Positions 1 through 27,838 of a stretch of DNA of 27,918 nt are shown here, in pieces (the first letter of the stretch is position 1; every line of letters begins with the position of its first letter). The stretch lies in the UHGV virus genome UHGV-0137059. The stretch is one strand, 5' to 3'. The DNA is from a virus. The notes beneath the pieces are model-generated. The model was not told the DNA's origin and did no database searches. It worked only from the letters and a program-made list of their open reading frames with translations. A program made the translations under genes and the position numbers.

Positions 1-192
1 AACTACCTGTTCTTCGGTTCGGATCATGGAGGAGAGCGGGGAGCGCTGCTGTACAGCCTGATCGGGACATGCAAACTGAACGGAGTGGAGCCAGAAAGCT
101 ACCTTCGCCATGTGCTTGATGTTATAGCTGACTGGCCGATAAACCGGGTCAGCGAACTACTCCCCTGGCGCGTAGCACTGCCAACTGAATAA
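1..192 (+). CDS. IS66-family transposase, C-terminal fragment (5' end outside window)
   Basis: Hand translation: NYLFFGSDHGGERGALLYSLIGTCKLNGVEPESYLRHVLDVIADWPINRVSELLPWRVALPTE, stop TAA at 190-192; matches the conserved C-terminal block of IS66-family TnpC from recall. Confidence 0.7.
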   Translation, partial: NYLFFGSDHGGERGALLYSLIGTCKLNGVEPESYLRHVLDVIADWPINRVSELLPWRVALPTE

Positions 193-229
193 CACATCCC
201 CGTCAATACGGTTCTCGCTGCACGCTTAC
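1..229 (+). mobile_element. Right end of an IS66-family insertion sequence (left part lies outside the window); terminus ends ...CGCTTAC at 223-229
   Basis: Frame-1 translation of 1-192 gives a conserved IS66-family transposase C-terminus; the last 7 bp before the phage junction (CGCTTAC) are the reverse complement of the GTAAGCG terminus typical of IS66-family inverted repeats; the phage gp7 reading frame breaks exactly at 229/230. Confidence 0.7.
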
Positions 230-353
230 CATACTTCTGAGCTTCTGCGGCATACTTTGCGCTTTTATCAGAGCTGCCACCTTTCCCGCCTTTTTCAGGG
301 CAATAAGGTTCCTCGCCGCGCAGTTTTCTGCCCAGCTTAAATGCATATAACAT
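230..353 (-). pseudogene. N-terminal 41 codons of P22-like gene 7 (DNA ejection protein), truncated by the IS66 insertion
   Basis: ORF 99-353(-) begins MLYAFKLGRKLRGEEPYCPEKGGKGGSSDK, as recalled for P22 gp7; synteny gp26-gp14-gp7 is P22-like; beyond codon 41 the frame runs into IS sequence. Confidence 0.65.
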
Positions 354-355
354 GG

Positions 356-811
356 CTATCTCCCGTGATTCAGGAAGTCGATTAGTTCTTCGCGTGTGGC
401 GCTGTAAAACGTCACGTCATCCACGCCTTTGAAGTATTTCTTGATGGTTCCTACACGATTAAGGCCAATCATTGCGCAATACATCTGACCGTGGCGGAAT
501 TTGCGTGCAGCGAACGATGTGACGCACTGAACGGTGGTGTTAGTCAGAATGTATCGCCAGAACGCCAGCCCGATTTCCTTGCTGAATCCACGAACCTCTG
601 GCAGGTACATGGCGTGGCAATCGAATGTAAGCGGCTGAATCTCCTGATAGTAAACAATGCCGCCAAACTGACCGTGCACGTTAACCTCAAAGTAACGGCA
701 TTCAGGCTTGTAGTCGTATCCATCACCGTTGTTGCTACCAGCGATAATGTCGGGGTGATTTCCCACGGCTTCTATCAGGTCGATGTTTCGTGTTGGTTTG
801 AATGTAATCAT
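356..811 (-). CDS. P22 gp14-like head/tail assembly protein (151 aa)
   Basis: Lies between the tail-needle gene and gene 7 as in P22; start codon overlaps the upstream stop (TGATG). Identity is by synteny, not sequence recall. Confidence 0.6.
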   Translation of the reverse strand: MITFKPTRNIDLIEAVGNHPDIIAGSNNGDGYDYKPECRYFEVNVHGQFGGIVYYQEIQPLTFDCHAMYLPEVRGFSKEIGLAFWRYILTNTTVQCVTSFAARKFRHGQMYCAMIGLNRVGTIKKYFKGVDDVTFYSATREELIDFLNHGR

Positions 812-1512
812 CAGTCAATCAGCCCATGTAATCTAAGTGCTGTTTCAAGCGCCAGAATACGCTGCCGCGCCTGCTCCAAACCTGTAGCGATAGCTGCGAC
901 TTCGGATTGTGTGTACGTAGTGCCGACCGTGTATGACTGGTTAGCGTTGAATGAGCCAAGAAGAGGTGTACCTGTGGCTGCAGTCCATCCGGTATTTCTT
1001 GCTCCAACAACTTGAATTCCATCAACTGAATATGATGTTTTTACATCCAGCGGTGACGCAAGAGACTGCAATTCGGTTACGGTTTTCGATACGTAATCAC
1101 TCTTAATGCCAGAGACATCGTTTTCTACGTCATCCAGTCTTTGGTCAACAGTGACCAGATGCGCCTGAATATCGATAACCTCATCCAGCAAGTAATCAAC
1201 ATCGCTACGCAGTACGACTATCTTCCCTTCGGCGGTTGTTAACCTGACCTCAAGGAGATTTATCGCTTTTGTGTTTGCGGTGATTCTTGAATCGTGATCT
1301 GCCAGTTCGACGTCCTGTTCATCGTTTTTCACCTGAGCATCGTAAGCGCCCTGACCAGCCTGATTTGCCTTCCCGGCAATTGCGCCGACATCAGCCCCCT
1401 GATTAATGACATACAGCAGGTAAGACTGGCTGAATATATTGCGTGGAAGGATTGATGTATCGAGCCGCGTCGCCTGCACAATAACAGGTGTATTGAGATT
1501 CGAATCAGCCAT
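811..1512 (-). CDS. Tail needle protein (P22 gp26-like, 233 aa)
   Basis: 233 aa; N-terminal [36 protein letters not shown] and C-terminal ...LRLHGLID match recalled P22 gp26; coiled-coil heptad region in the middle. Confidence 0.85.
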
Positions 1513-2930
1513 TACTCAATCCTTATCTGGCAACCTGACAGAGTGACAGGTGACTTCGTGATAACGCGCAATTTGAAACCGACATTTTTCCTGATGCGCC
1601 CGACACGCTTCCACAAAACGCGTTTGTCGTAAACGAACGGTTCATTCTGCTCAATCATCTGCTCACGCCCGTAATTGATGCCGTCAGTGGTTGCAGAGAG
1701 AAAAAGGCGGTCAGCATACTGCGCAACGCCAGTTGACGATTCAACCTCAAAGTCAAACACTCTGGCGTTATCCGCTTTGAACAACGGAGTAAACAGCAGG
1801 TGTTCCTGCTGCTTGTCGTACTGGCTGCTGATATCGAACTGCAATTTCCCGGTCACGGACTCCAGCTTATCTCCGCACGTTATCTGATTGCCTTCGTAAA
1901 TGAAGTCGATAGCGCGGTACACATCGTCATACAGGCCTGTTTTCAGCACACACCATTGCGGACCATTGGAGCTTGAAGATGCGTCGTATACGAGGACGTG
2001 GCGCGGCAGGTGAATAATCAGCAGCTCATGCGCATCAAACCGCAACGATTCCATCACACCATCAGCCAGTTCATCAGCAGTGTAGGAGCGTAGTATTTTC
2101 TCAATGCTCGCGCTGGCGATTGGTGATACCTGACCGGAACCGATGATGTATACAGACGGCGCACCTGTTGCCGGATTGCTGATGAATGCATAAGAATCAG
2201 CAAACGGCGTTTTGCAGTAAGTTCCGGCGATGCCTTTTTGCACCATCAGCGATGGCTGTGCGACATACAACGCGGCACCAACAGTGGTTGCACCAGTCAG
2301 GGAGAAATATTCAATCGTCGATGAACCAAAGCAGACGATGAAATCTCGCCATGTTCCGATGCCGATGATGCCGTCCGGCTGCGATTCTGCGCGATATTGT
2401 GCACTGTAACGGTCAGGATGCGATTCGTCTTCAAGGTCAGTGATAAACCATGAATCAGTTCCGTCTTTTGACCACGCATAACGCCCACGTAAGCGCGTAA
2501 TGTCGCGAACTGAACCTAACTCATACTGAGTGAATCCACTGTCTGTAGGCCAGTTTGAGACGGCTTTAACCGTACCATCATAGCGATACTCGACCAGTTG
2601 ACCATTAACGCCTACCGCCTGTGATGTCCGACCATGCGCCATTGATACACGACCACTTCCGGCGACATCACCAACCTCGCTTTCTCCTTTGTACAGTTTG
2701 CCACCACACACGCGATAAACAGCACTCTGCGCCATGTTGTACTCGACGCCGCGCGATACACCGTTCACATCAGAGCGTTTGGCAATGCCCGGGAATGAGC
2801 GAAGATATCCGCTGCTGTTGAGAATTTCTTTGGGTGTAGCCAGCATATTCACTGGCAGATAGTCGATATATTCGGCGTTTCGGAAGTCTTTGCCGACACC
2901 TTTCATAAGCGGAAGTTGCTGAATCGGCAT
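1512..2930 (-). CDS. Head completion / packaged-DNA stabilisation protein (P22 gp10-like, 472 aa)
   Basis: 472 aa starting [16 protein letters not shown] and ending ...LSGCQIRIE; same length and termini as recalled for P22 gp10. Confidence 0.85.
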
Positions 2931-2939
2931 TTATTCACC

Positions 2940-3401
2940 TCACGTACTCGGATCATCTTTCTCGATGTAAAACCGATTCCACGTAAACGCGCTTTTGTTA
3001 CCACTACCGCGAGGCATGTCATTTCGCCGCTCAAGTGGTGGTATTTTGGTTAAAGCGATACAGATTGTTTGATATGCACTGTCAGCAGCGGTAAGGAGAG
3101 CGTCTGACGGCTGAATGACGTTATCCATGCACACTTGCACAGCGAGCTTCAAAGCGACGCCATCATTTGCCCATGCAGGGATACCTGAATCATCGTCAGG
3201 TAACGGCATGATGCCGTTACCTGTATCAGCAAACTGATATCCAAGCTCGATACCTTTAGCCTGCCATGCTGCCATCATGTCTTCGAGGTCATTAATGGCA
3301 TCTTCAATTGCCTGAGGGTCGGCATCTGTCAACGTGGCATTGGAATACAGCCCGGCTTTTCGTAAAGCCTTAAGAACGAGATCACCCTTCGTTTTCGCCA
3401 T
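2940..3401 (-). CDS. Head-to-tail adaptor (P22 gp4-like, 153 aa)
   Basis: N-terminal KTKGDLVLKALRKAG..ATLTD..PQAIEDAINDLEDMMAAW resembles recalled gp4; sits between the coat and gp10 genes. Confidence 0.7.
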   Translation of the reverse strand: MAKTKGDLVLKALRKAGLYSNATLTDADPQAIEDAINDLEDMMAAWQAKGIELGYQFADTGNGIMPLPDDDSGIPAWANDGVALKLAVQVCMDNVIQPSDALLTAADSAYQTICIALTKIPPLERRNDMPRGSGNKSAFTWNRFYIEKDDPST

Positions 3402-3570
3402 CTTCTTCCGCCTTAGCCACTTTATGCTTCGTTGCGGTTTCTTCAGGAGTTTTTACCCAGCCTTTTTTCAGGTGAGATTTAACTTCTTCGTCATCAACAA
3501 TGATGTAATCGACAGCAAACTGACCACAGGTGATCATGTTGCCAGGCTTATAGAGCATTGTTCGTGCCAT
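3382..3570 (-). CDS. Small hypothetical protein (62 aa) between the coat and gp4 genes
   Basis: ATG at 3570 preceded by GGGAGAAGAC ribosome-binding site; overlaps the gp4 start by 20 nt; acidic C-terminus. Function unknown. Confidence 0.5.
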   Translation of the reverse strand: MARTMLYKPGNMITCGQFAVDYIIVDDEEVKSHLKKGWVKTPEETATKHKVAKAEEDGENEG

Positions 3571-3580
3571 TGTCTTCTCC

Positions 3581-3606
3581 CAATAAAAATGGGGCCGAAG
3601 CCCCAC
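3581..3606 (-). terminator. Rho-independent terminator (partial read-through likely) just downstream of the coat gene
   Basis: Minus-strand GGGGCTTCGGCCCC hairpin (plus 3591-3604) followed by ATTTTTATT. Confidence 0.6.
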
Positions 3607-3611
3607 CAAAA

Positions 3612-4865
3612 TTACTGCCCGGCAATAACGATGCCCGTATATTCAGGAACAAGTACAGAGCAACCGTACAGGGTGGTGAAACGCGCAGTGGTTACACCTT
3701 TGATGTGGTCGAAGGCGTAAGACATGATCAGCGTAGCGCCCTGCTCGGTGGTTGCTGTCATTACCTGTGGACCCTGACCAGTTGGGAACGCCAGCTTGCC
3801 GTACATCAGTTCAACAGAACCATCAGCCCAGAACAGGTTAGCCGGTGCGGCATTTTTGTTGAGAATGGTGATTGCTGCGCTACTTGCCGCATTAGCATCA
3901 ACGTTTGCATATGGTCGGCTGGCGACATCCGCGTTGTCAGGCGGCAGAATTTTCGGGGAGATAGTTACTGTCGTTCCGCTTACTGCCAGAACGCGGAATA
4001 CCTGCGGCTGCCCGGTGGTATCTTTGGTGATCTGGTGTACAGAATTCACCCCTGCGATGGTAAACGCATCGCCAACCTGCAAACCTTCAGCAGATACCGT
4101 AATGGTCCCCTGTCGGTTATCCACTGGCATATCGTTAGCATCTTTGGCTTCAACCTTGTGCGCAGGTGCTGCTGCCAGCGTAATGGAAGTTGCTGTACCC
4201 TTCGGAACACGACCAGAAATATCGGTCTTGTAGCTATCGAAGGACGCAACCGGAGGGATTTGCGCTTTTTCGTATGCTGTCAGGGTTGCGCCCTGAGCAT
4301 AGGCACGGTGACCAAGCTCGCCAGCAAGGTCTTTGTAGTTGAAGGGGTTCCAGAAAGAGCGACGGTTGATACCCTGAGGTACACCAATCGCCGTCATGGT
4401 GGCATCAATACCTGCCGCACAGTTCCACAAATCACGGCCCTGTGAACCTGTGGTTGAGTCAGCCATCGTGATCACGTTAGTAGCACGCTGCGTAACCATG
4501 GAAATCAGGTCAGAGTCAATCTGTGCAGCAAGGCGCATACCTGCGGCGCGACCAGCTTCAGTTTTATGTTCCGGGTCACGCATTTCACGCGCATCCAGAG
4601 TGTACAGAATGTTTTTCGGCTCCTTGAACACAGAAGGAACAAGGCGCTGAACCAGTGCTGTTGGCGTTTTGCCGCTGAGGTCTAGGCCTTCCTCAATGTT
4701 CATGTGGTAATGCTGCGGACGATACAGAACATCACCTGCTCGCTGCATTGCTGTATCACCGGGACGGAATTTTTTAGCGTTACGGGAAACTACGCAGGCG
4801 GCCTCAAAGCCTTCAACGTAGTTTTCGAACATGATTTCAAGGTCTTTTGCTAATTGGTTAGCCAT
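3612..4865 (-). CDS. Major capsid (coat) protein, P22-like fold (417 aa)
   Basis: Position after scaffold gene; C-terminal NLFWADGSVELM motif resembles P22 coat NVFWADDAIRIV; ribosome-binding site CGGAG upstream of ATG 4865. Confidence 0.85.
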   Translation of the reverse strand: MANQLAKDLEIMFENYVEGFEAACVVSRNAKKFRPGDTAMQRAGDVLYRPQHYHMNIEEGLDLSGKTPTALVQRLVPSVFKEPKNILYTLDAREMRDPEHKTEAGRAAGMRLAAQIDSDLISMVTQRATNVITMADSTTGSQGRDLWNCAAGIDATMTAIGVPQGINRRSFWNPFNYKDLAGELGHRAYAQGATLTAYEKAQIPPVASFDSYKTDISGRVPKGTATSITLAAAPAHKVEAKDANDMPVDNRQGTITVSAEGLQVGDAFTIAGVNSVHQITKDTTGQPQVFRVLAVSGTTVTISPKILPPDNADVASRPYANVDANAASSAAITILNKNAAPANLFWADGSVELMYGKLAFPTGQGPQVMTATTEQGATLIMSYAFDHIKGVTTARFTTLYGCSVLVPEYTGIVIAGQ

Positions 4866-4883
4866 GCTTAATGCTCCGATAGG

Positions 4884-5777
4884 TTATTTTTTTGCCTTTT
4901 TAGCGGCGAAATACGGCGTCCAGTCACCAGTTTCCAGCGCCTTGGCTTTCAATTTGACGAGGTTGTTGATTACTGCGCCGTTGCTCCCCTTAACTGTCGG
5001 GGTTGTGGCTGCCGTGGTTTTTGCTTTTGGCATGATTCTGGCCTTCGATTCGATACGTTCCAGCAGACGACCAATTGCTACGGGGTTGGTAGCTTCTGCC
5101 AGTTGCTTGCGCAGTTCATCGTTGCGACCGAGTGCCAGAACAACGATTTCCGGCTTCTCTGACTCAAACAGGATCGCGTTTTGTGTCTCGATGGGGATTT
5201 CCTCGAGTACGGCCTGCTCAGCTTCCTGATAGCCAGGAACTTTGAGAGCCTTAACACGTTGCTGATATTTGGATAATCGCTCTTGATAGGCAGCCTGAAG
5301 CTCCTGCTCCTTCTGCTTGCGAGCCATCTCCTGTTGCTGGTACTTGCCGTTATCCTCTGCCCACTTAGCCATGCGTTGCTGGTAGATTTCTTCATCGAAA
5401 CCGATGTCCTCATCATCCAGTTTTGGCATTCGCGGTGGTTGAGTGATTACCGGCTGCTGCTCGACGGGTTTCTGAGACTGACGCATCAGCTCTTTCAGCT
5501 CACGGTCTTTCTCTTTAATCGTCTTGCGCAGGTGTTTTACCAGTCCATGCTCTGCGCCATCTTCGCTGGTTGGCGAATCCAGCTTTTCGTCACCAAAGTA
5601 GAATTCCTGTTCTGATTCGTCGTCATCAGTTTCAGTAGCTTCCTCTGCATCATTGCCGGAGGACTCACTGCCATCTTCTGTTTCGACTTCTTCAGCCAGT
5701 TCGACATCATCAGGAATCTGCTCTGACGCGTCGGTTTCGATTTCAACTTCTGGTGTGTTTTCTGCCATCTGGTCCAT
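4884..5777 (-). CDS. Scaffolding protein (297 aa)
   Basis: Highly acidic N-terminus, helical Q/E/K-rich body, basic C-terminus; between portal and coat genes. Confidence 0.8.
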   Translation of the reverse strand: MDQMAENTPEVEIETDASEQIPDDVELAEEVETEDGSESSGNDAEEATETDDDESEQEFYFGDEKLDSPTSEDGAEHGLVKHLRKTIKEKDRELKELMRQSQKPVEQQPVITQPPRMPKLDDEDIGFDEEIYQQRMAKWAEDNGKYQQQEMARKQKEQELQAAYQERLSKYQQRVKALKVPGYQEAEQAVLEEIPIETQNAILFESEKPEIVVLALGRNDELRKQLAEATNPVAIGRLLERIESKARIMPKAKTTAATTPTVKGSNGAVINNLVKLKAKALETGDWTPYFAAKKAKK

Positions 5778-5867
5778 TTGTTACCCCTGTTTACTCGATG
5801 TTCAGCCCATCGGAAGGCAATAGGGTGCCAGGCCTCATAAAGACAGCCATTGCACGTTATGGGTTAA

Positions 5868-8072
5868 TTACTGCTGTGGTTGTTGCTGAGTTGATTTTTG
5901 CAGGATGCTGCTGATGTCCATGCGCTGCGCATGGCCCTGTGCCTGACTTTTCAGGACAAGCTCCGCATCAGCACGGGCATTGTCTCCTTGCTGTTGCTGG
6001 AACTGTCCGAGCAGTTTCAGAGCCTCGCGGATATCAGATTTCTGCTGGCTATCGGCAGATGCGAGGATTTTCACAACATTTGCCGCTGCAACCTGAGCAT
6101 CAGTCTGTGCCTGGAATGCTTTAACCTGAATGGCTGCCTGTTCGTTCTGCGCTTTCTGCAATTCAGCCTGACCAGCAAGAAGCTGACCTTGCGCAGCAAC
6201 CATAGCCGGATCCGGCTGACTGGCCTGTTGTTGTTTCGCCTGCTCAACCATCTGCTGTTCTTCTGGTGTTCTCGGCTTAATAACGCCAGACAGAAGCAAC
6301 TGATTGCGGTTGTATTCTTTAAGGTCGTCCATCCCTTCGCCGTCCATATTGTCGAGAATCATCGACGATACAAGGTCATGCTTCGGCGTTCCTGGCGGGA
6401 TAAGTGCCAGCATGGAAAGCAACGACTTAACCGTTGCATCACGGCGAGTAGCGAACGACTGACCGACATCGACAGTCACTTCATAGTTACCCTGCGAAAG
6501 GTCGTTAAGCGCGATAACCTTCCCTGTCTGACGGTCAACCACTTCACCAGTCATCAGCGCCACGTCATCGCTGCCATCCTCATTAACGATGCGCATTGGC
6601 GTATCGCTGCCATAGACTTCACGAGCCATAGAAAGCCACACGACGCCAGCACGGCGCATGGATTTAGCCATGTTGTCCATGTAGATATAGGACTGCGTGT
6701 CCATCCGGTTAAAGATGCTATCAACGGTATCGGTAGCGACGTTGCTCGGCATGTTCTCAAGCTGCGACGCACCTGTAATTTGCTGAATAGCCGTTCCGGT
6801 GTACTGCAATAGCCCGGCAAGAGCAGGAGGCATTTGTGTCGGAGGTGTCCAGCCAGCAACCTGAGCCTCTGAAATGACCGTTCCGTTTTTGTCCTTCTTG
6901 CTGGTCATGGGAAGAACTGCAGGTCTTTTCTTATTCCTCTCTGCCCAGTGATTCATTAATGGACCGGGAATGAAATCAACATCCACGATAGGAATGCCAT
7001 CACCGCCAGCCTGAGTAGCATTATCTGCAATCATGGAAACCATCAGGTTCTCAAGACGCTGTGCATCCATCGCTTTTGCTGCGTGGCCTTCGATTCGCTC
7101 CTGATTATCAACAAATGAACGACGCCCATATACCGGGATGAGAGGAATATGTTCGCCCGGAATACGCTTCGGTTCTTCCAGCCATTCAGCGCCAGACAGA
7201 AGACCGCAATAAACTCGGCGTTTCTTCACCGTTCGCTCGCCAATCAGTTCGAATGCACCATCGGTCAGCTCGTCGACAATATCTTTGATTTGCTCTTCAT
7301 CATAGATTGCCGTTTCTCCGCTGACAGGGTTACGCCATGCTGTGAGCTTCACCTTCTCTATGCGGACTTCGTAGTAGCGTCCAACATAGATGGCATCTGG
7401 CGTTGACCAGTCATATTGAGTGCCAGTGTCATCACGAGAAAGGCTTGCCGCGATGGAATCAGGGTATTCAGCCTCGAACGCTTTAGGCGTCATGGAGAAC
7501 ATTTCCATAGCCCACATAGCATCAGAACGGTCATATTGCTTGCTGTCCTGATCGAAGAAGACGCATGTCGCTGGGTCGTAAACAGGAAGAAGGCTGATGC
7601 GTCGCTGCTCGTTACTCGGATCCATTTCATCTTCGTAATCGGCACACATGCGGAAACAACCGAATCCGCCCGTTACAGCATCATCAAATGCGTTATCACA
7701 CGCTTCGCCACCGGATGTTTCCTGATAGTCAGCGCGGAATTTGCCGTTCATCTTTTCGGCTAACGCTTCCGATGCCTTATCGTCCTTAGGCCTGAATTTA
7801 ACGCTGATGCGATTCTGTCGATACTCGCCAATGATGCGATCACATTCACGGGCAATCTTATTCAGTTCAAAGCGCGGGTAATGCTCAAACCTGCCTTCAT
7901 CAAATGAGTAACCAGCGTTTGTGCTGCCTTCCCACTGTGCGCCGGACACCCGGACGAAACGTTGAGCCTCAATAATCTGCTCACGCATATCCTTCGTTGC
8001 TGACCAGGCATTATCAAAGTTGCACAGCACCTTGCGATGCCAGTCAGTCATCTTTCTATCATCAGCCATCAT
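5868..8072 (-). CDS. Portal protein (about 734 aa)
   Basis: Large ORF between terminase and scaffold genes; Q-rich C-terminal tail as in P22-like portals; likely ATG at 8072 overlapping the terminase stop (the tabulated 8084 start is a TTG). Confidence 0.85.
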   Translation of the reverse strand: MMADDRKMTDWHRKVLCNFDNAWSATKDMREQIIEAQRFVRVSGAQWEGSTNAGYSFDEGRFEHYPRFELNKIARECDRIIGEYRQNRISVKFRPKDDKASEALAEKMNGKFRADYQETSGGEACDNAFDDAVTGGFGCFRMCADYEDEMDPSNEQRRISLLPVYDPATCVFFDQDSKQYDRSDAMWAMEMFSMTPKAFEAEYPDSIAASLSRDDTGTQYDWSTPDAIYVGRYYEVRIEKVKLTAWRNPVSGETAIYDEEQIKDIVDELTDGAFELIGERTVKKRRVYCGLLSGAEWLEEPKRIPGEHIPLIPVYGRRSFVDNQERIEGHAAKAMDAQRLENLMVSMIADNATQAGGDGIPIVDVDFIPGPLMNHWAERNKKRPAVLPMTSKKDKNGTVISEAQVAGWTPPTQMPPALAGLLQYTGTAIQQITGASQLENMPSNVATDTVDSIFNRMDTQSYIYMDNMAKSMRRAGVVWLSMAREVYGSDTPMRIVNEDGSDDVALMTGEVVDRQTGKVIALNDLSQGNYEVTVDVGQSFATRRDATVKSLLSMLALIPPGTPKHDLVSSMILDNMDGEGMDDLKEYNRNQLLLSGVIKPRTPEEQQMVEQAKQQQASQPDPAMVAAQGQLLAGQAELQKAQNEQAAIQVKAFQAQTDAQVAAANVVKILASADSQQKSDIREALKLLGQFQQQQGDNARADAELVLKSQAQGHAQRMDISSILQKSTQQQPQQ

Positions 8073-9565
8073 CCAACTCCGCAAGGTATGTTGTAGCTTG
8101 AGTAATCAATCTCTTTAGGATCTTTGATGTCTCGCATCTGTATTGCAAAACGCCTCATCATGTAGCCATAGCGAACAGCAGAAAGGATGTCGTCATTTAG
8201 CTTGACGATCTTCCCGTTCTCATCGCGGTGATACAGACGAAACTCTTCAAAGAATGGCTCGCAGGTGTTAAATACCTTGAAACGACCGTCGAGCATCATG
8301 TCGCGTATCTCTGCTATCCCGGGTTCGACCGCATTACCTCCATCAGGCCATGTTGCATGATCTGGCAACATGTCGAACCCAGCTTCGGCGTATTGTTCCT
8401 TGAGCTGAGCGCCGCCTCCCTTTTCGTGCTGATGCCCGTCATGAGGCCAAGCCGTAGGGGTGTTTTTGCTCCATGCTTTAACAGCACTCCATGCCTCTGT
8501 CGCCTTCTTCTGTTTGGCCTTCCAGACGCGAGAAAGATAAATCACGTCCTCGTCTTTATCCCACCAAAGCTGGATATGTGCCTGTGGGTGATCCCATCCG
8601 AAGTCCATTGCATTGATGACGTAGAAGTGATCAGGACACTCGAACGGCTGACACTTAATCGTCTCTTCCGGTATCTGGAAGATTCGACCGCTACCCATCG
8701 TAGGAATACCGCGAGCACGCGCCTCTCTCTCATGCTCAGGATAGGATGCGATGATTTGCTCTTTCTGCTCGTCGGTGTAGTGCTCAGCGTCATAGATGGT
8801 CATGTTGACCACTTTCTGCGACTTGCTGGGGTTCTTCAGGAACTTGGTAACAACGTCAGACATCCCCATCAGCGGGGTAAACGTCAGAATTGAGAATTGC
8901 CCGTATTTGTTGGTACGGGTAAGACCTTCGCCATAAATGCTGTATGGTGGCTCTTCGTCAAACCACACGCCGTGGATTGTGTCACCCTGCCAGCGAGCGC
9001 GGCCTTGCGAGTATGGCTTGAAGTAGCAGATTGAAATGCCATTTTCAACGCCATCAGCCGTGTGATGCTTAACCAGAAGATGATCAACAAGGTTCGGAAA
9101 GAAAGGAGACTTCTTCCAGCTAATGATGTCCTCTTTCGGTATGGAACCGTAGCCCGGCTCGTCATTCTCTTCAATACGACCGCACAGGATGCGTTGAGTC
9201 GTTTTGGTTACCGTCTCGTTTGTCTCGCCACCAATCCAGAAGACAACAGGCTCATAGAAACGCTTACCTTTCCACTCCCCACCATATTTACCATCAGCCG
9301 GATAGCCTTTTGTTCCAGGATAACGCCCTGTAAGGTGAAACGCGACTTCAGCAGCACCAGTAAATGACTTACCAAGCTGGTTGCCAGCCATAAAACATCG
9401 CTCTGGATAGTCATGTCCGGCGTCGATGAACTCACGCTGTTTGCTGTATGGCGTAAATTCATATAGCAGGTGTGTGTTCCGGTAGTTCTCTTCTTCTTCG
9501 AGTAGCTCGAGCAATTCGATTTGCTCTTCGTCGCTCAGGTTATCAAGAATCGCGTCCAGTTCCAC
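8069..9565 (-). CDS. Terminase large subunit (498 aa)
   Basis: Size and position (after small terminase, before portal); codon at 9565 is GTG; overlaps small-terminase 3' end by 23 nt. Confidence 0.85.
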
Positions 9566-10031
9566 GGTTGAATAGCTCCTTGATACGAGAGCGTCGCTTA
9601 TCGCGATCTCCCTTATCAGGTGTCACGTCTTCAACTTGCGACTGCTCTTTGAGGCCCAAATCACGGGCGATGATGTTAGCGTTGAGAAGGTCAGCGGCTG
9701 CGCCAGAGAATTTCTGGTCGTAGATGACCTGTTCTGCTCGCGTAACGACTTCAGATAAATCTTCTCGCAGGCGATATGTGCGCCATGTTTCAAGCGTCAC
9801 ATCAATGAACAGAGTGAGTCCGGTAATGGTCATCGCTCGCATCTTGGCGATAGGCTCTTGTATCACTTCACCCTGATACGAGAATGCCTTCATCTCCCAT
9901 AGCGGGTTAGCTTCTACCCACTCGAAGTATTCACAACAAGCAGCCCACAGCGCCTCGGGCGACTCGAATTTAGGATTTCGCCCATGACTACTGCGGGCCT
10001 CCCAAAATCGGTTGCCCTTTGGTGCTGCCAT
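9543..10031 (-). CDS. Terminase small subunit (P22 gp3-like, 162 aa from second ATG)
   Basis: [38 protein letters not shown]... matches recalled P22 gp3; start placed at second ATG (10031). Confidence 0.85.
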
Positions 10032-10066
10032 ATTCATCTCACTTAATTGTCATTTCAGGTTGAGCA

Positions 10067-10309
10067 TCATGCTCCGGTAGTGAACAGGTCTAACGCTTCC
10101 TTCGATTTACGCACCGCTTCGATAGTGCGGGTAGTGATATCTGAATTAGCGCCGCCTGACTGGAAGTGAATTTTGAATAGCTCAAGCTTCAGTTCGTCAG
10201 TGCCAATAAATTGAAATGCTTCCTCTGCGGCTGCGTTCTGGTTCATGACCAGTTTGTAAATCTCTAACTGGAATTTCTGTTCTTCAGTCATGGGAATAAT
10301 CTCTGCCAT
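10067..10309 (-). CDS. Small conserved protein (80 aa), equivalent to P22 orf80 upstream of gene 3
   Basis: 80 aa, directly upstream of small terminase; ribosome-binding site GGAG present. Confidence 0.6.
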   Translation of the reverse strand: MAEIIPMTEEQKFQLEIYKLVMNQNAAAEEAFQFIGTDELKLELFKIHFQSGGANSDITTRTIEAVRKSKEALDLFTTGA

Positions 10310-10565
10310 TGTTGGCTCCGTTTATCCGTTAAAAGGGATATCAGTTAAGTTATCCCGTGTAGGGTATAAGCCATTGTCGAGACCACTCATTGAATGGCCT
10401 CTGCAATAACCGATGTCTTTCCATCAGTCCGCCACCACAAAGAATCTTTTTTGCCATAAGGCAGGAGGTTCATCTTTCAGTGGCTGCCAGTGTTATTTCC
10501 CCACTTACTGGCTTGGGTTGTTTCGTGGTACTGCCGTAATGCAAAAACTGGATTAACCTGCGAAA

Positions 10566-11442: not shown

Positions 11443-11910
11443 TCATCGAAGGCATTGCGTCCTGATGTATTCCTGAAGCGTTCTCAGTGCTGTTTGGTCG
11501 CGGATAATTCCGTCCCGGATACCGAGAACGTTTCGTCCAGCAACTGGAGAGAGTTCGACGGTGGCATCATTGCCCATGCCGGAGGCGCTGGAGGTTTCGG
11601 CTGAGGATGGCACAGGGCATTTTCCTTTGACGAACACCCGACCACCATTATCAAGCTTGCGCCGAAGAGCATCATTTTCAGCTTTCGCATCAGCTAACTC
11701 CTTCGTGTATTTAGCATCGAGTGCATCAGCAGCACGCTGGCGTTGCTGCATGTCAGTAATGGTGGCGGTCGCCTGCTTCAGCTCACTGACTTTTTTATCA
11801 CGCTGTTCTTTGTAGGCGATGGCGTTATCACGGTAATGATTGACCGCCCACGACAGGCAGACGATGATGCAGATAACCAGAGCGGAGATAATCGCGGTTA
11901 CTCTGTTCAT
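11443..11910 (-). CDS. Rz: i-spanin Rz (155 aa)
   Basis: [31 protein letters not shown]... very close to recalled lambda Rz. Confidence 0.9.
11484..11690 (-). CDS. Rz1: o-spanin Rz1 lipoprotein, embedded in Rz in the +1 frame
   Basis: KLKMML...VVGCSS lipobox followed by proline-rich [11 protein letters not shown], as in lambda Rz1; exact start uncertain. Confidence 0.8.
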
Positions 11911-27316: not shown

Positions 27317-27559
27317 ATGTTCAAACGCTGCATCACCAAGTGTGGAAGCACACCTGACATCCAAGCTTTTATTAATGAAGATGGTAAGCTTGTTGTTGAG
27401 AGGAGTGGTCCTTTTATTAGCAAACAACTTATCATTACCTCTCCAGCGGAGATGGCCGGGGAATGGATAGTTTCTGAACCAGAGGAGTTGCACATCCCGC
27501 TTCCTTATGGCCCTCAGGGACTGATTTATAACCGTTATGTTCAGAAGGAGGCGGGTTGA
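27317..27559 (+). CDS. Small hypothetical protein (80 aa) behind an AT-rich promoter-like region
   Basis: ATG at 27317 preceded by GGGGGGG ribosome-binding site and AT-rich sequence with TATAAT-like hexamers (27200-27300). Confidence 0.5.
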   Translation: MFKRCITKCGSTPDIQAFINEDGKLVVERSGPFISKQLIITSPAEMAGEWIVSEPEELHIPLPYGPQGLIYNRYVQKEAG

Positions 27560-27838
27560 CAATGTCAGGCATAACATCGCCGAGAAATCGAAAGAAAAAC
27601 AGAACAAGGTAAACGTTGACCTTGCAGCATCAGGCATGGAGTACAGAGAGCGCCTTAACATACCTGTTATCACTGAGCAGGTATCATGAGAGCAACCTGA
27701 GCACTCACGCGAGTATTTCATGGAGCGCATCAGATACTATCGCGAGCAGTCGTTAAACATGCCCAAGGGAAGCAACCCATGGTATATCGATATGGATGAA
27801 CAGAACGCCAAGAAGTAAACGCAATTTGAACGAATGCG

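Follow-up and report, generated by a model that had tools for sequence, protein, structure and literature searches.

The stretch of viral DNA analysed here (27,918 nucleotides, hereafter the window) begins inside an insertion sequence (IS) and then runs into the 5' end of gene 7, a DNA-ejection gene of P22-type phages. This arrangement raises the question of whether the IS marks a prophage that has lost the rest of its late region and is decaying, or a single insertion into a prophage that is otherwise complete. As set out below, we consider it very likely that an ISKpn24-type element made a simple insertion into gene 7 of an otherwise complete P22-like prophage, and that the end of the window is a contig break. 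The phage is a CUS-3/HK620-type E. coli relative of P22, not P22 itself.

Exact look-up of an 84-residue chimeric open reading frame (ORF) that spans the junction (Table 1) identified the window as the entire metagenome contig ERZ781265 NODE_428_length_27918 (SPAdes; coverage about 33); locus L004 corresponds to window 1-10353 in reverse complement. Position 1 is the contig end within a multi-copy IS, that is to say, the sequence stops there at an assembly break in a repeat and not at a biological truncation. A contig end inside an IS says nothing on what follows, and the window therefore holds no information on the phage DNA past the element. The structure past the IS was read not from the window's own sample but from E. 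coli 1368KP (NZ_CM173843.1, isolated from a human in the Czech Republic) and from one independent metagenome contig (ERZ1304033, locus L005). The 1368KP chromosome differs from the window by 9 mismatches in 27,918 bases and is 100% identical to it over window 1-1500. Locus L001 is the part of this chromosome that lies to the left of and spans the IS, and L002 is the opposite end of the prophage on the same chromosome. Eight of the 9 differences cluster in the Rz-type lysis gene (window 11443-11910; sites 11490-11824), where they cause 4 amino-acid changes, and the remaining one lies at window 9043 in the large terminase gene (N175D). The cluster looks like a small recombination patch or the consensus of mixed strains.

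The minus-strand ORF that starts at the ATG at 353 reads MLYAFKLGRKLRGEEPYCPEKGGKGGSSDKSAKYAAEAQKY (41 residues) and departs from gp7 at window 229/230. The CGCTTAC motif (window 223-229) joins the gp7 sequence exactly at the IS terminus, and the plus-strand translation of window 1-192, which ends in ...NYLFFGSDHGGERGALLYSLIGTCKLNGVEPESYLRHVLDVIADWPINRVSELLPWRVALPTE followed by a stop, matches the Pfam family DDE_Tnp_IS66_C (PF13817) with 66 bits against a cut-off of 30. A preliminary description of the window had placed the break of the gp7 frame at this point, next to a CGCTTAC terminus and the C-terminus of an IS66-type transposase; the ORF, the Pfam match and the alignment of the element show it to have been accurate to the base. 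That CGCTTAC is a chance 7-mer was ruled out, as the whole of window 1-229 matches the end of a 2,454-bp element with 100% identity.

Table 1. Features at the gene 7 junction, in window coordinates unless a locus is named.
Feature	Position	Strand	Evidence or remark
Right-hand 229 bp of the 2,454-bp ISKpn24-type IS66-family insertion sequence	1..229	+	100% identity to the NZ_CM173843.1 copy, L001 17776-20229
tnpC 3' end (IS66 DDE transposase), last 63 codons and stop TAA at 190-192	1..192	+	Pfam PF13817
Right terminal inverted repeat, imperfect, about 23 bp, ending ...ACGCTTAC	206..229	+	Reverse complement begins GTAAGCGT, like the left end; alignment of the element's two ends
tnpA, tnpB, tnpC	L001 17857-18261, 18258-18605, 18654-20192	one strand, consecutive	1368KP annotation; only the last 192 nt of tnpC inside the window
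Right copy of the 8-bp target-site duplication CATACTTC	230..237		Left copy at L001 17768-17775, beyond the window
5' fragment of P22-type gene 7 (DNA-ejection protein), codons 1-41 and one base	230..353	-	Identical to the N-terminus of intact gp7 homologues
Chimeric 84-aa ORF: gp7 residues 1-41, then 43 IS-encoded residues antisense to tnpC	99..353	-	Marker of the insertion allele
Gene 14 homologue (DUF2824), directly upstream of gene 7 in the late operon, intact	356..811	-	PF11039, 178 bits; annotated as 14 or head assembly in CUS-3, HK620 and IME10
Gene 26 homologue (tail needle, 233 aa), intact	811..1512	-	PHROG 1219 tail needle protein, 1-233/233; phage annotations

In 1368KP the element measures 2,454 bp and is bounded by GTAAGCG...CGCTTAC; its left end reads GTAAGCGTCGTCTCAGCACCGT, and its right end, reverse-complemented, reads GTAAGCGTGCAGCGAGAACCGT. 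RefSeq annotates tnpC, tnpB and tnpA of an "IS66-like element ISKpn24 family" leftward of the window's share of the chromosome. The 3 products passed curated IS66 cut-offs: (i) TnpA scored 83 bits with NF047595 (cut-off 74); (ii) TnpB scored 120 bits with NF033819 (cut-off 50) and 131 bits with PF05717; and (iii) TnpC (512 aa) scored 460 bits with NF033517 (cut-off 180) and 349 bits with PF03050, and it also matched PF13007, PF13005 and PF13817. Han and co-workers are said to have reported in 2001 that the imperfect terminal inverted repeats of the IS66 family begin 5'-GTAAGCG. The family is characterized by the tnpABC organisation and an 8-bp target-site duplication (PMC6778807). The earlier assignment to IS66 thus holds for the tnpA/tnpB/tnpC genes, the GTAAGCG termini and the 8-bp duplication alike.

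Over the whole 2,454 bp, matches of 99.2-99.6% were obtained to ISKpn24-family copies on plasmids and chromosomes of Klebsiella, Enterobacter, Cronobacter and E. coli, and the name ISKpn24 rests on the RefSeq/NCBI pipeline annotation of these copies and of the 1368KP copy. The element shares with ISKpn24 (relatives ISEc22, IS679 and IS66) the gene order tnpA-tnpB-tnpC, a transposase with LZ, zinc-finger, DDE_Tnp_IS66 and C-terminal domains, the termini GTAAGCG...CGCTTAC and the 8-bp target duplication. There is no structural difference between them, and the present copy is particular only in its insertion site inside a phage ejection gene. It is a complete ISKpn24-type element of the IS66 family and is apparently active. 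Such elements are common: 2,119 records of the plasmid collection span at least 80% of the element, and related IS66-family sequence is present in 3,961 of the 5,426 complete E. coli genomes.

The sequence CATACTTC stands on both sides of the IS in 1368KP and in L005 as a perfect 8-bp duplication. In strain 20AR0300, in which gene 7 is uninterrupted, a single CATACTTC is located at the exact insertion point, and the 1368KP left flank runs straight into the right flank. The split, at codon 42, leaves 41 codons of gene 7 as a 5' piece in the window and 190 codons as a 3' piece past the IS, which is oriented antisense to the phage late operon. Deletion of the IS and of one duplicate restored an ORF of 231 residues that matches the Pfam family P22_gp7 (PF25688) over positions 1-229 of 230 with 440 bits (E 2.6e-132); NCBIfam contained no model matching gp7. 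The rebuilt gp7 is 100% identical to gp7 of the isolated Salmonella phage UPF_BP1 over residues 1-167, the low-complexity C-terminus being masked, and 96% identical to that of 20AR0300, with a junction free of gaps. These data describe a simple transposition event, after which the 2 fragments of gene 7 have remained undecayed.

Misassembly typically occurs at IS elements, and the window is a metagenome contig built by SPAdes, so the join of IS and gp7 could in principle be an assembler's chimera that hides an intact gene 7. We give this reading next to no credence, however, because the identical junction occurs in an isolate chromosome and in 4 further metagenome contigs, the join lies exactly at the IS terminus, and a perfect 8-bp duplication with a matching empty site is the signature of real transposition. 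An intact gene 7 elsewhere, which the preliminary description had named as evidence against its reading, was also looked for, and a sensitive DNA search of the 1368KP chromosome revealed a single gene 7 locus and no second one.

Upstream of gene 7, beyond genes 14 and 26, the window's late operon continues with intact homologues of genes 10 and 4 and of the coat protein gene. The order of the late operon is 26-14-7-20-16, corresponding to tail needle, DUF2824 (14), gene 7, Inj_translocase (20) and PHROG 770 (16). Beyond the IS in 1368KP, a pseudogene annotated as "DNA transfer protein, missing N-terminus" is the 3' part of gene 7; the 5' part, on the other side of the element, bears a pseudogene flag as well. 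It is followed by gene 20 (471 aa; Pfam Inj_translocase; full-length PHROG 917) and gene 16 (612 aa; full-length PHROG 770). Past gene 16 lies an immI-type region composed of 2 Arc/Mnt-family genes (arc and mnt) and an antirepressor gene (ant), and then a 695-aa tailspike, an acyltransferase and the host genes ybhB and bioA. The tail needle and the tailspike have full-length matches to PHROG or Pfam families. A gene of the Rap1a/Tai family (type VI effector immunity-like; L001 13168-13503) occupies the sieA/immI position beside mnt, and the acyltransferase gene (L001 8627-9400), located between the tailspike gene and attL, may be an O-antigen-modifying conversion gene.

Extending the sequence leftward, as the preliminary description had proposed, was thus possible by way of 1368KP and recovered the other IS end, the 8-bp duplication, the remainder of gp7, gp20, gp16 and the tailspike. 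The alternative it offered, a loss of the remaining late region, is refuted in the 2 assemblies that span the element, since in both 1368KP and L005 the IS is followed by the 3' part of gene 7 and by gene 20 at full length, and gene 16, immI, the tailspike gene and attL are present in 1368KP.

The same loss could still be confined to the source population, where the IS would mark the edge of a deletion or rearrangement that removed the 3' part of gene 7 together with genes 20, 16 and the tailspike gene. The window stops inside the IS and shows nothing past it directly, and 2 further metagenome contigs, L006 (3037-4196) and L007 (3456-3523), keep the identical junction of the gp7 fragment with the IS and run at the far IS end into unrelated DNA, where the 8-mers fail to match, as recombination between IS copies would leave (compare PMC6778807 for IS66). 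However, L006 and L007 are short-read contigs that cross a multi-copy repeat of 2.45 kb, where assemblers often join the wrong exits, and the far flank of L006 is mobile-island sequence, the region of a gene with a maltose-acetyltransferase domain that occurs in 26 E. coli genomes and on plasmids. In strain AW1.7, the region corresponding to the L006 flank showed no adjoining ISKpn24. The 2 contigs may be chimeras from assembly through the repeat or true recombinants between IS copies. In 1368KP, the only finished genome with the junction, and in L005, the insertion is simple, with matching duplications and an intact gene 20 beyond the IS. We therefore regard a deletion in the source population as unlikely and retain the simple insertion as the preferred reading.

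The remainder of the 1368KP prophage is consistent with a complete element. Perfect copies of the 15-bp lambda att core GCTTTTTTATACTAA bound the prophage (L001 8306 and L002 9591; record 3167441 and 3208590), which sits in the classical lambda attB, flanked by ybhB and ybhC, and spans 41,149 bp between the cores. The xis (excisionase) and int (integrase) genes are annotated as intact, as are the repressor, replication, lysis, packaging and head genes, the ejection genes besides gene 7, and the tailspike gene. Apart from gene 7, the 1368KP annotation flags no pseudogene in an essential module. The phage genome measures 38,687 bp without the IS and 41.1 kb with it. The headful of P22 is 43.4 kb (PMC8402733), so that terminally redundant packaging should stay possible with the IS in place, assuming a P22-sized head. 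The other flagged ORFs are small accessory ones of the early region: a holE-like gene (DNA polymerase III theta) has an internal stop (window 27537-27818; record 3206672-3206953), and a small ORF next to it is annotated as truncated. These lesions are accessory and are no evidence of a loss of essential function.

The junction is rare. It was found in 1 of the 5,426 complete E. coli genomes (1368KP), compared with 356 that contain the adjacent phage region at high coverage. The exact chimeric ORF was found in 5 ENA metagenome contigs, the window's own included, and an exact-pattern scan with the 31-nt junction returned no hit among the GTDB species representatives and JGI metagenome contigs. 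L005 contains both junctions, the duplication, the 3' fragment of gene 7 and a full-length gene 20, and is collinear with 1368KP without gaps. Compared with L001 15749-24296, L005 has 52 mismatches, all of them in the phage flanks (in genes 10, 26, 14 and 20, with a single one in the 3' fragment of gene 7); the IS itself is free of them. These mismatches could have arisen through post-insertion recombination between P22-like prophages, or from several strains being merged in the metagenome consensus.

Whether the shared junction was inherited or arose repeatedly depends on the target preference of the element. The flanks of 31 independent right ends of ISKpn24/ISEc22-type elements (L011-L040, L001, L008 and L010) contained no strict target sequence; the 8-bp duplication has a weakly A/T-rich centre, and T and G at the 2 bases just past it occur in 16 of the 31 right ends each. 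Since these flanks share no strict target, the junction common to 1368KP and the metagenome contigs most likely reflects common descent and not recurrent insertion. A target hot-spot had been suspected on the grounds that the top ISEc22 matches run 10-11 bases past the IS end; it was rejected on the same 31 flanks, the extended matches being mainly an effect of ranking.

The presence of one allele in an isolate from the Czech Republic and in 5 metagenome contigs, the window's own included, is also what a domesticated prophage might show, in which the gene 7 knockout is selectively retained and keeps immunity and cargo without infectious phage: a phage incapable of infection reaches several samples only vertically, in a persisting host lineage. 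We judge such selection very improbable. As its genes for lysis, replication, excision and morphogenesis are all intact, the prophage should still be lethal to the host when induced, and a gene 7 knockout spares the host nothing of this cost. Furthermore, there are no secondary lesions, the gene 7 fragments are undecayed and give a perfect ORF when rebuilt, and the allele is found in only 1 of 5,426 complete genomes as against 356 with the closely related uninterrupted region. Neutral hitch-hiking of a recent IS hop accounts for these data.

The case for domestication or decay made in the preliminary description therefore falls short: the prophage carries one clean insertion, both att cores, int and xis, and otherwise no pseudogene in an essential module. 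Its description of the prophage as defective stands insofar as an essential function, that of gene 7, is inactivated, but not in the sense of a loss of further modules or of erosion into multiple pseudogenes. What we observe is one recent IS mutation, at most a first step of decay, and the evidence fits a single hop carried vertically. The lesion resembles those of other IS-disrupted enterobacterial prophages, in which an essential virion gene is inactivated by an IS in an integrated lambdoid prophage. The cryptic or defective prophages Rac, DLP12 and Qin, by contrast, have many deletions and pseudogenes, whereas the single clean and reversible-looking lesion seen here would stand at the start of that path.

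The consequences of the insertion can be anticipated from P22. Late transcription in P22-like phages is antiterminated by Q/gp23. As the late transcript is antiterminated and gene 20 retains its own ribosome-binding site (AAGGGG), expression probably persists downstream of the IS, and strong polarity on genes 20, 16 and the tailspike gene is not expected. The IS contains 5 terminator-like sites, compared with 3.3 ± 1.8 in shuffled sequences, which is no enrichment.

In P22, gp7, gp16 and gp20 are each required for DNA delivery (PMC8402733, PMC4992974), and gp7 residues 21-154 mediate incorporation into the procapsid (PMC8402733). Particles lacking gp7 (delta-7) are morphologically normal, and a host protease removes residues 1-20 of gp7 (PMC4992974). 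The 41-residue N-terminal stub encoded here would be reduced to 21 residues by this cleavage, which is far short of the 21-154 segment; the 84-residue chimeric product would thus include only 21 mature gp7 residues and should be non-functional. Given the split at codon 42, the P22 genetics (PMC8402733, PMC4992974) and the single gene 7 locus in the 1368KP chromosome, non-infectious virions are to be expected, in agreement with what the preliminary description had predicted for a disrupted gene 7.

The closest parallels are the P22 mutants 7-amH1375 and delta-7, which have lost essential gp7 and retain genes 14, 20, 16, 26 and 9. Gene 7 nulls of P22 are known to make DNA-filled, morphologically normal particles that fail in DNA delivery (PMC8402733, PMC4992974), and the same is predicted here. 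The P22 lesions are a nonsense mutation or a deletion, whereas the present one is a 2.46-kb insertion at codon 42, which may add some polarity and which leaves the N-terminal stub. The course of events that we propose is as follows. The IS transposed into codon 42 of gene 7 and duplicated the 8 bp. With gp7 lost, excision, replication, lysis and the assembly of DNA-filled, tailed particles would persist and DNA delivery would fail, as in P22 gene 7 mutants. The lysogen would keep immunity and any conversion or cargo functions, and the allele would pass vertically with the host lineage. The prophage would accordingly be inducible and yield normal-looking but non-infectious particles, and for 1368KP and its relatives we predict lysis and particles upon induction, but no plaques.

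This outlook would change if the split gene 7 were not a null allele. The 3' fragment has no native start, and the nearest in-frame ATGs are one within the IS, which would add a foreign leader of 28 residues, and Met54. A start at the IS-borne ATG would give a candidate fusion of 28 IS-encoded residues (MDSVHHIW...TLT) with gp7 residues 40-231. No recognisable Shine-Dalgarno sequence was detected at either ATG. We think there is little chance that this fusion works or, failing that, that selection keeps a non-infectious prophage across countries, although either would account for the same allele in several unrelated samples. With a working fusion, the phage would still spread by infection and the IS would be its cargo.

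The 1368KP chromosome carries a second copy of the IS, 100% identical to the first (L008 3001-5454; NZ_CM173843.1 257783-260236) and flanked by the duplication GAAGCCCC. This copy adjoins silS-silE-copM and overlaps an AAA ATPase gene. It is a plausible, and likely, donor of the gene 7 insertion, and its position suggests that the IS came in with a metal-resistance island. The likely route of the element thus leads from a sil/cop metal-resistance island, of the kind found on Klebsiella plasmids, into the resident prophage.

That a known IS inactivates a prophage gene by insertion is an ordinary and familiar phenomenon, and RefSeq already flags this gene as a pseudogene. The likely route of the IS is a small example of how imported mobile elements start the decay of a prophage, and the importance of the locus beyond annotation is slight. 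For annotation it matters in that a prophage predictor would score the 41-kb element as intact, yet infectious progeny are probably impossible.

Two further observations concern related elements. An ISEc22 copy in E. coli MY203L1 (L010 660-3100) has the same termini, is flanked by the duplication CCTGCTTC and interrupts a prophage tail-fibre gene, so that here, too, a phage virion gene has been knocked out by an IS66-family element. In addition, Escherichia sp. MOD1-EC7003 shows a large expansion of ISKpn24/ISEc22-type elements, with more than 20 of its contig ends lying inside the IS.
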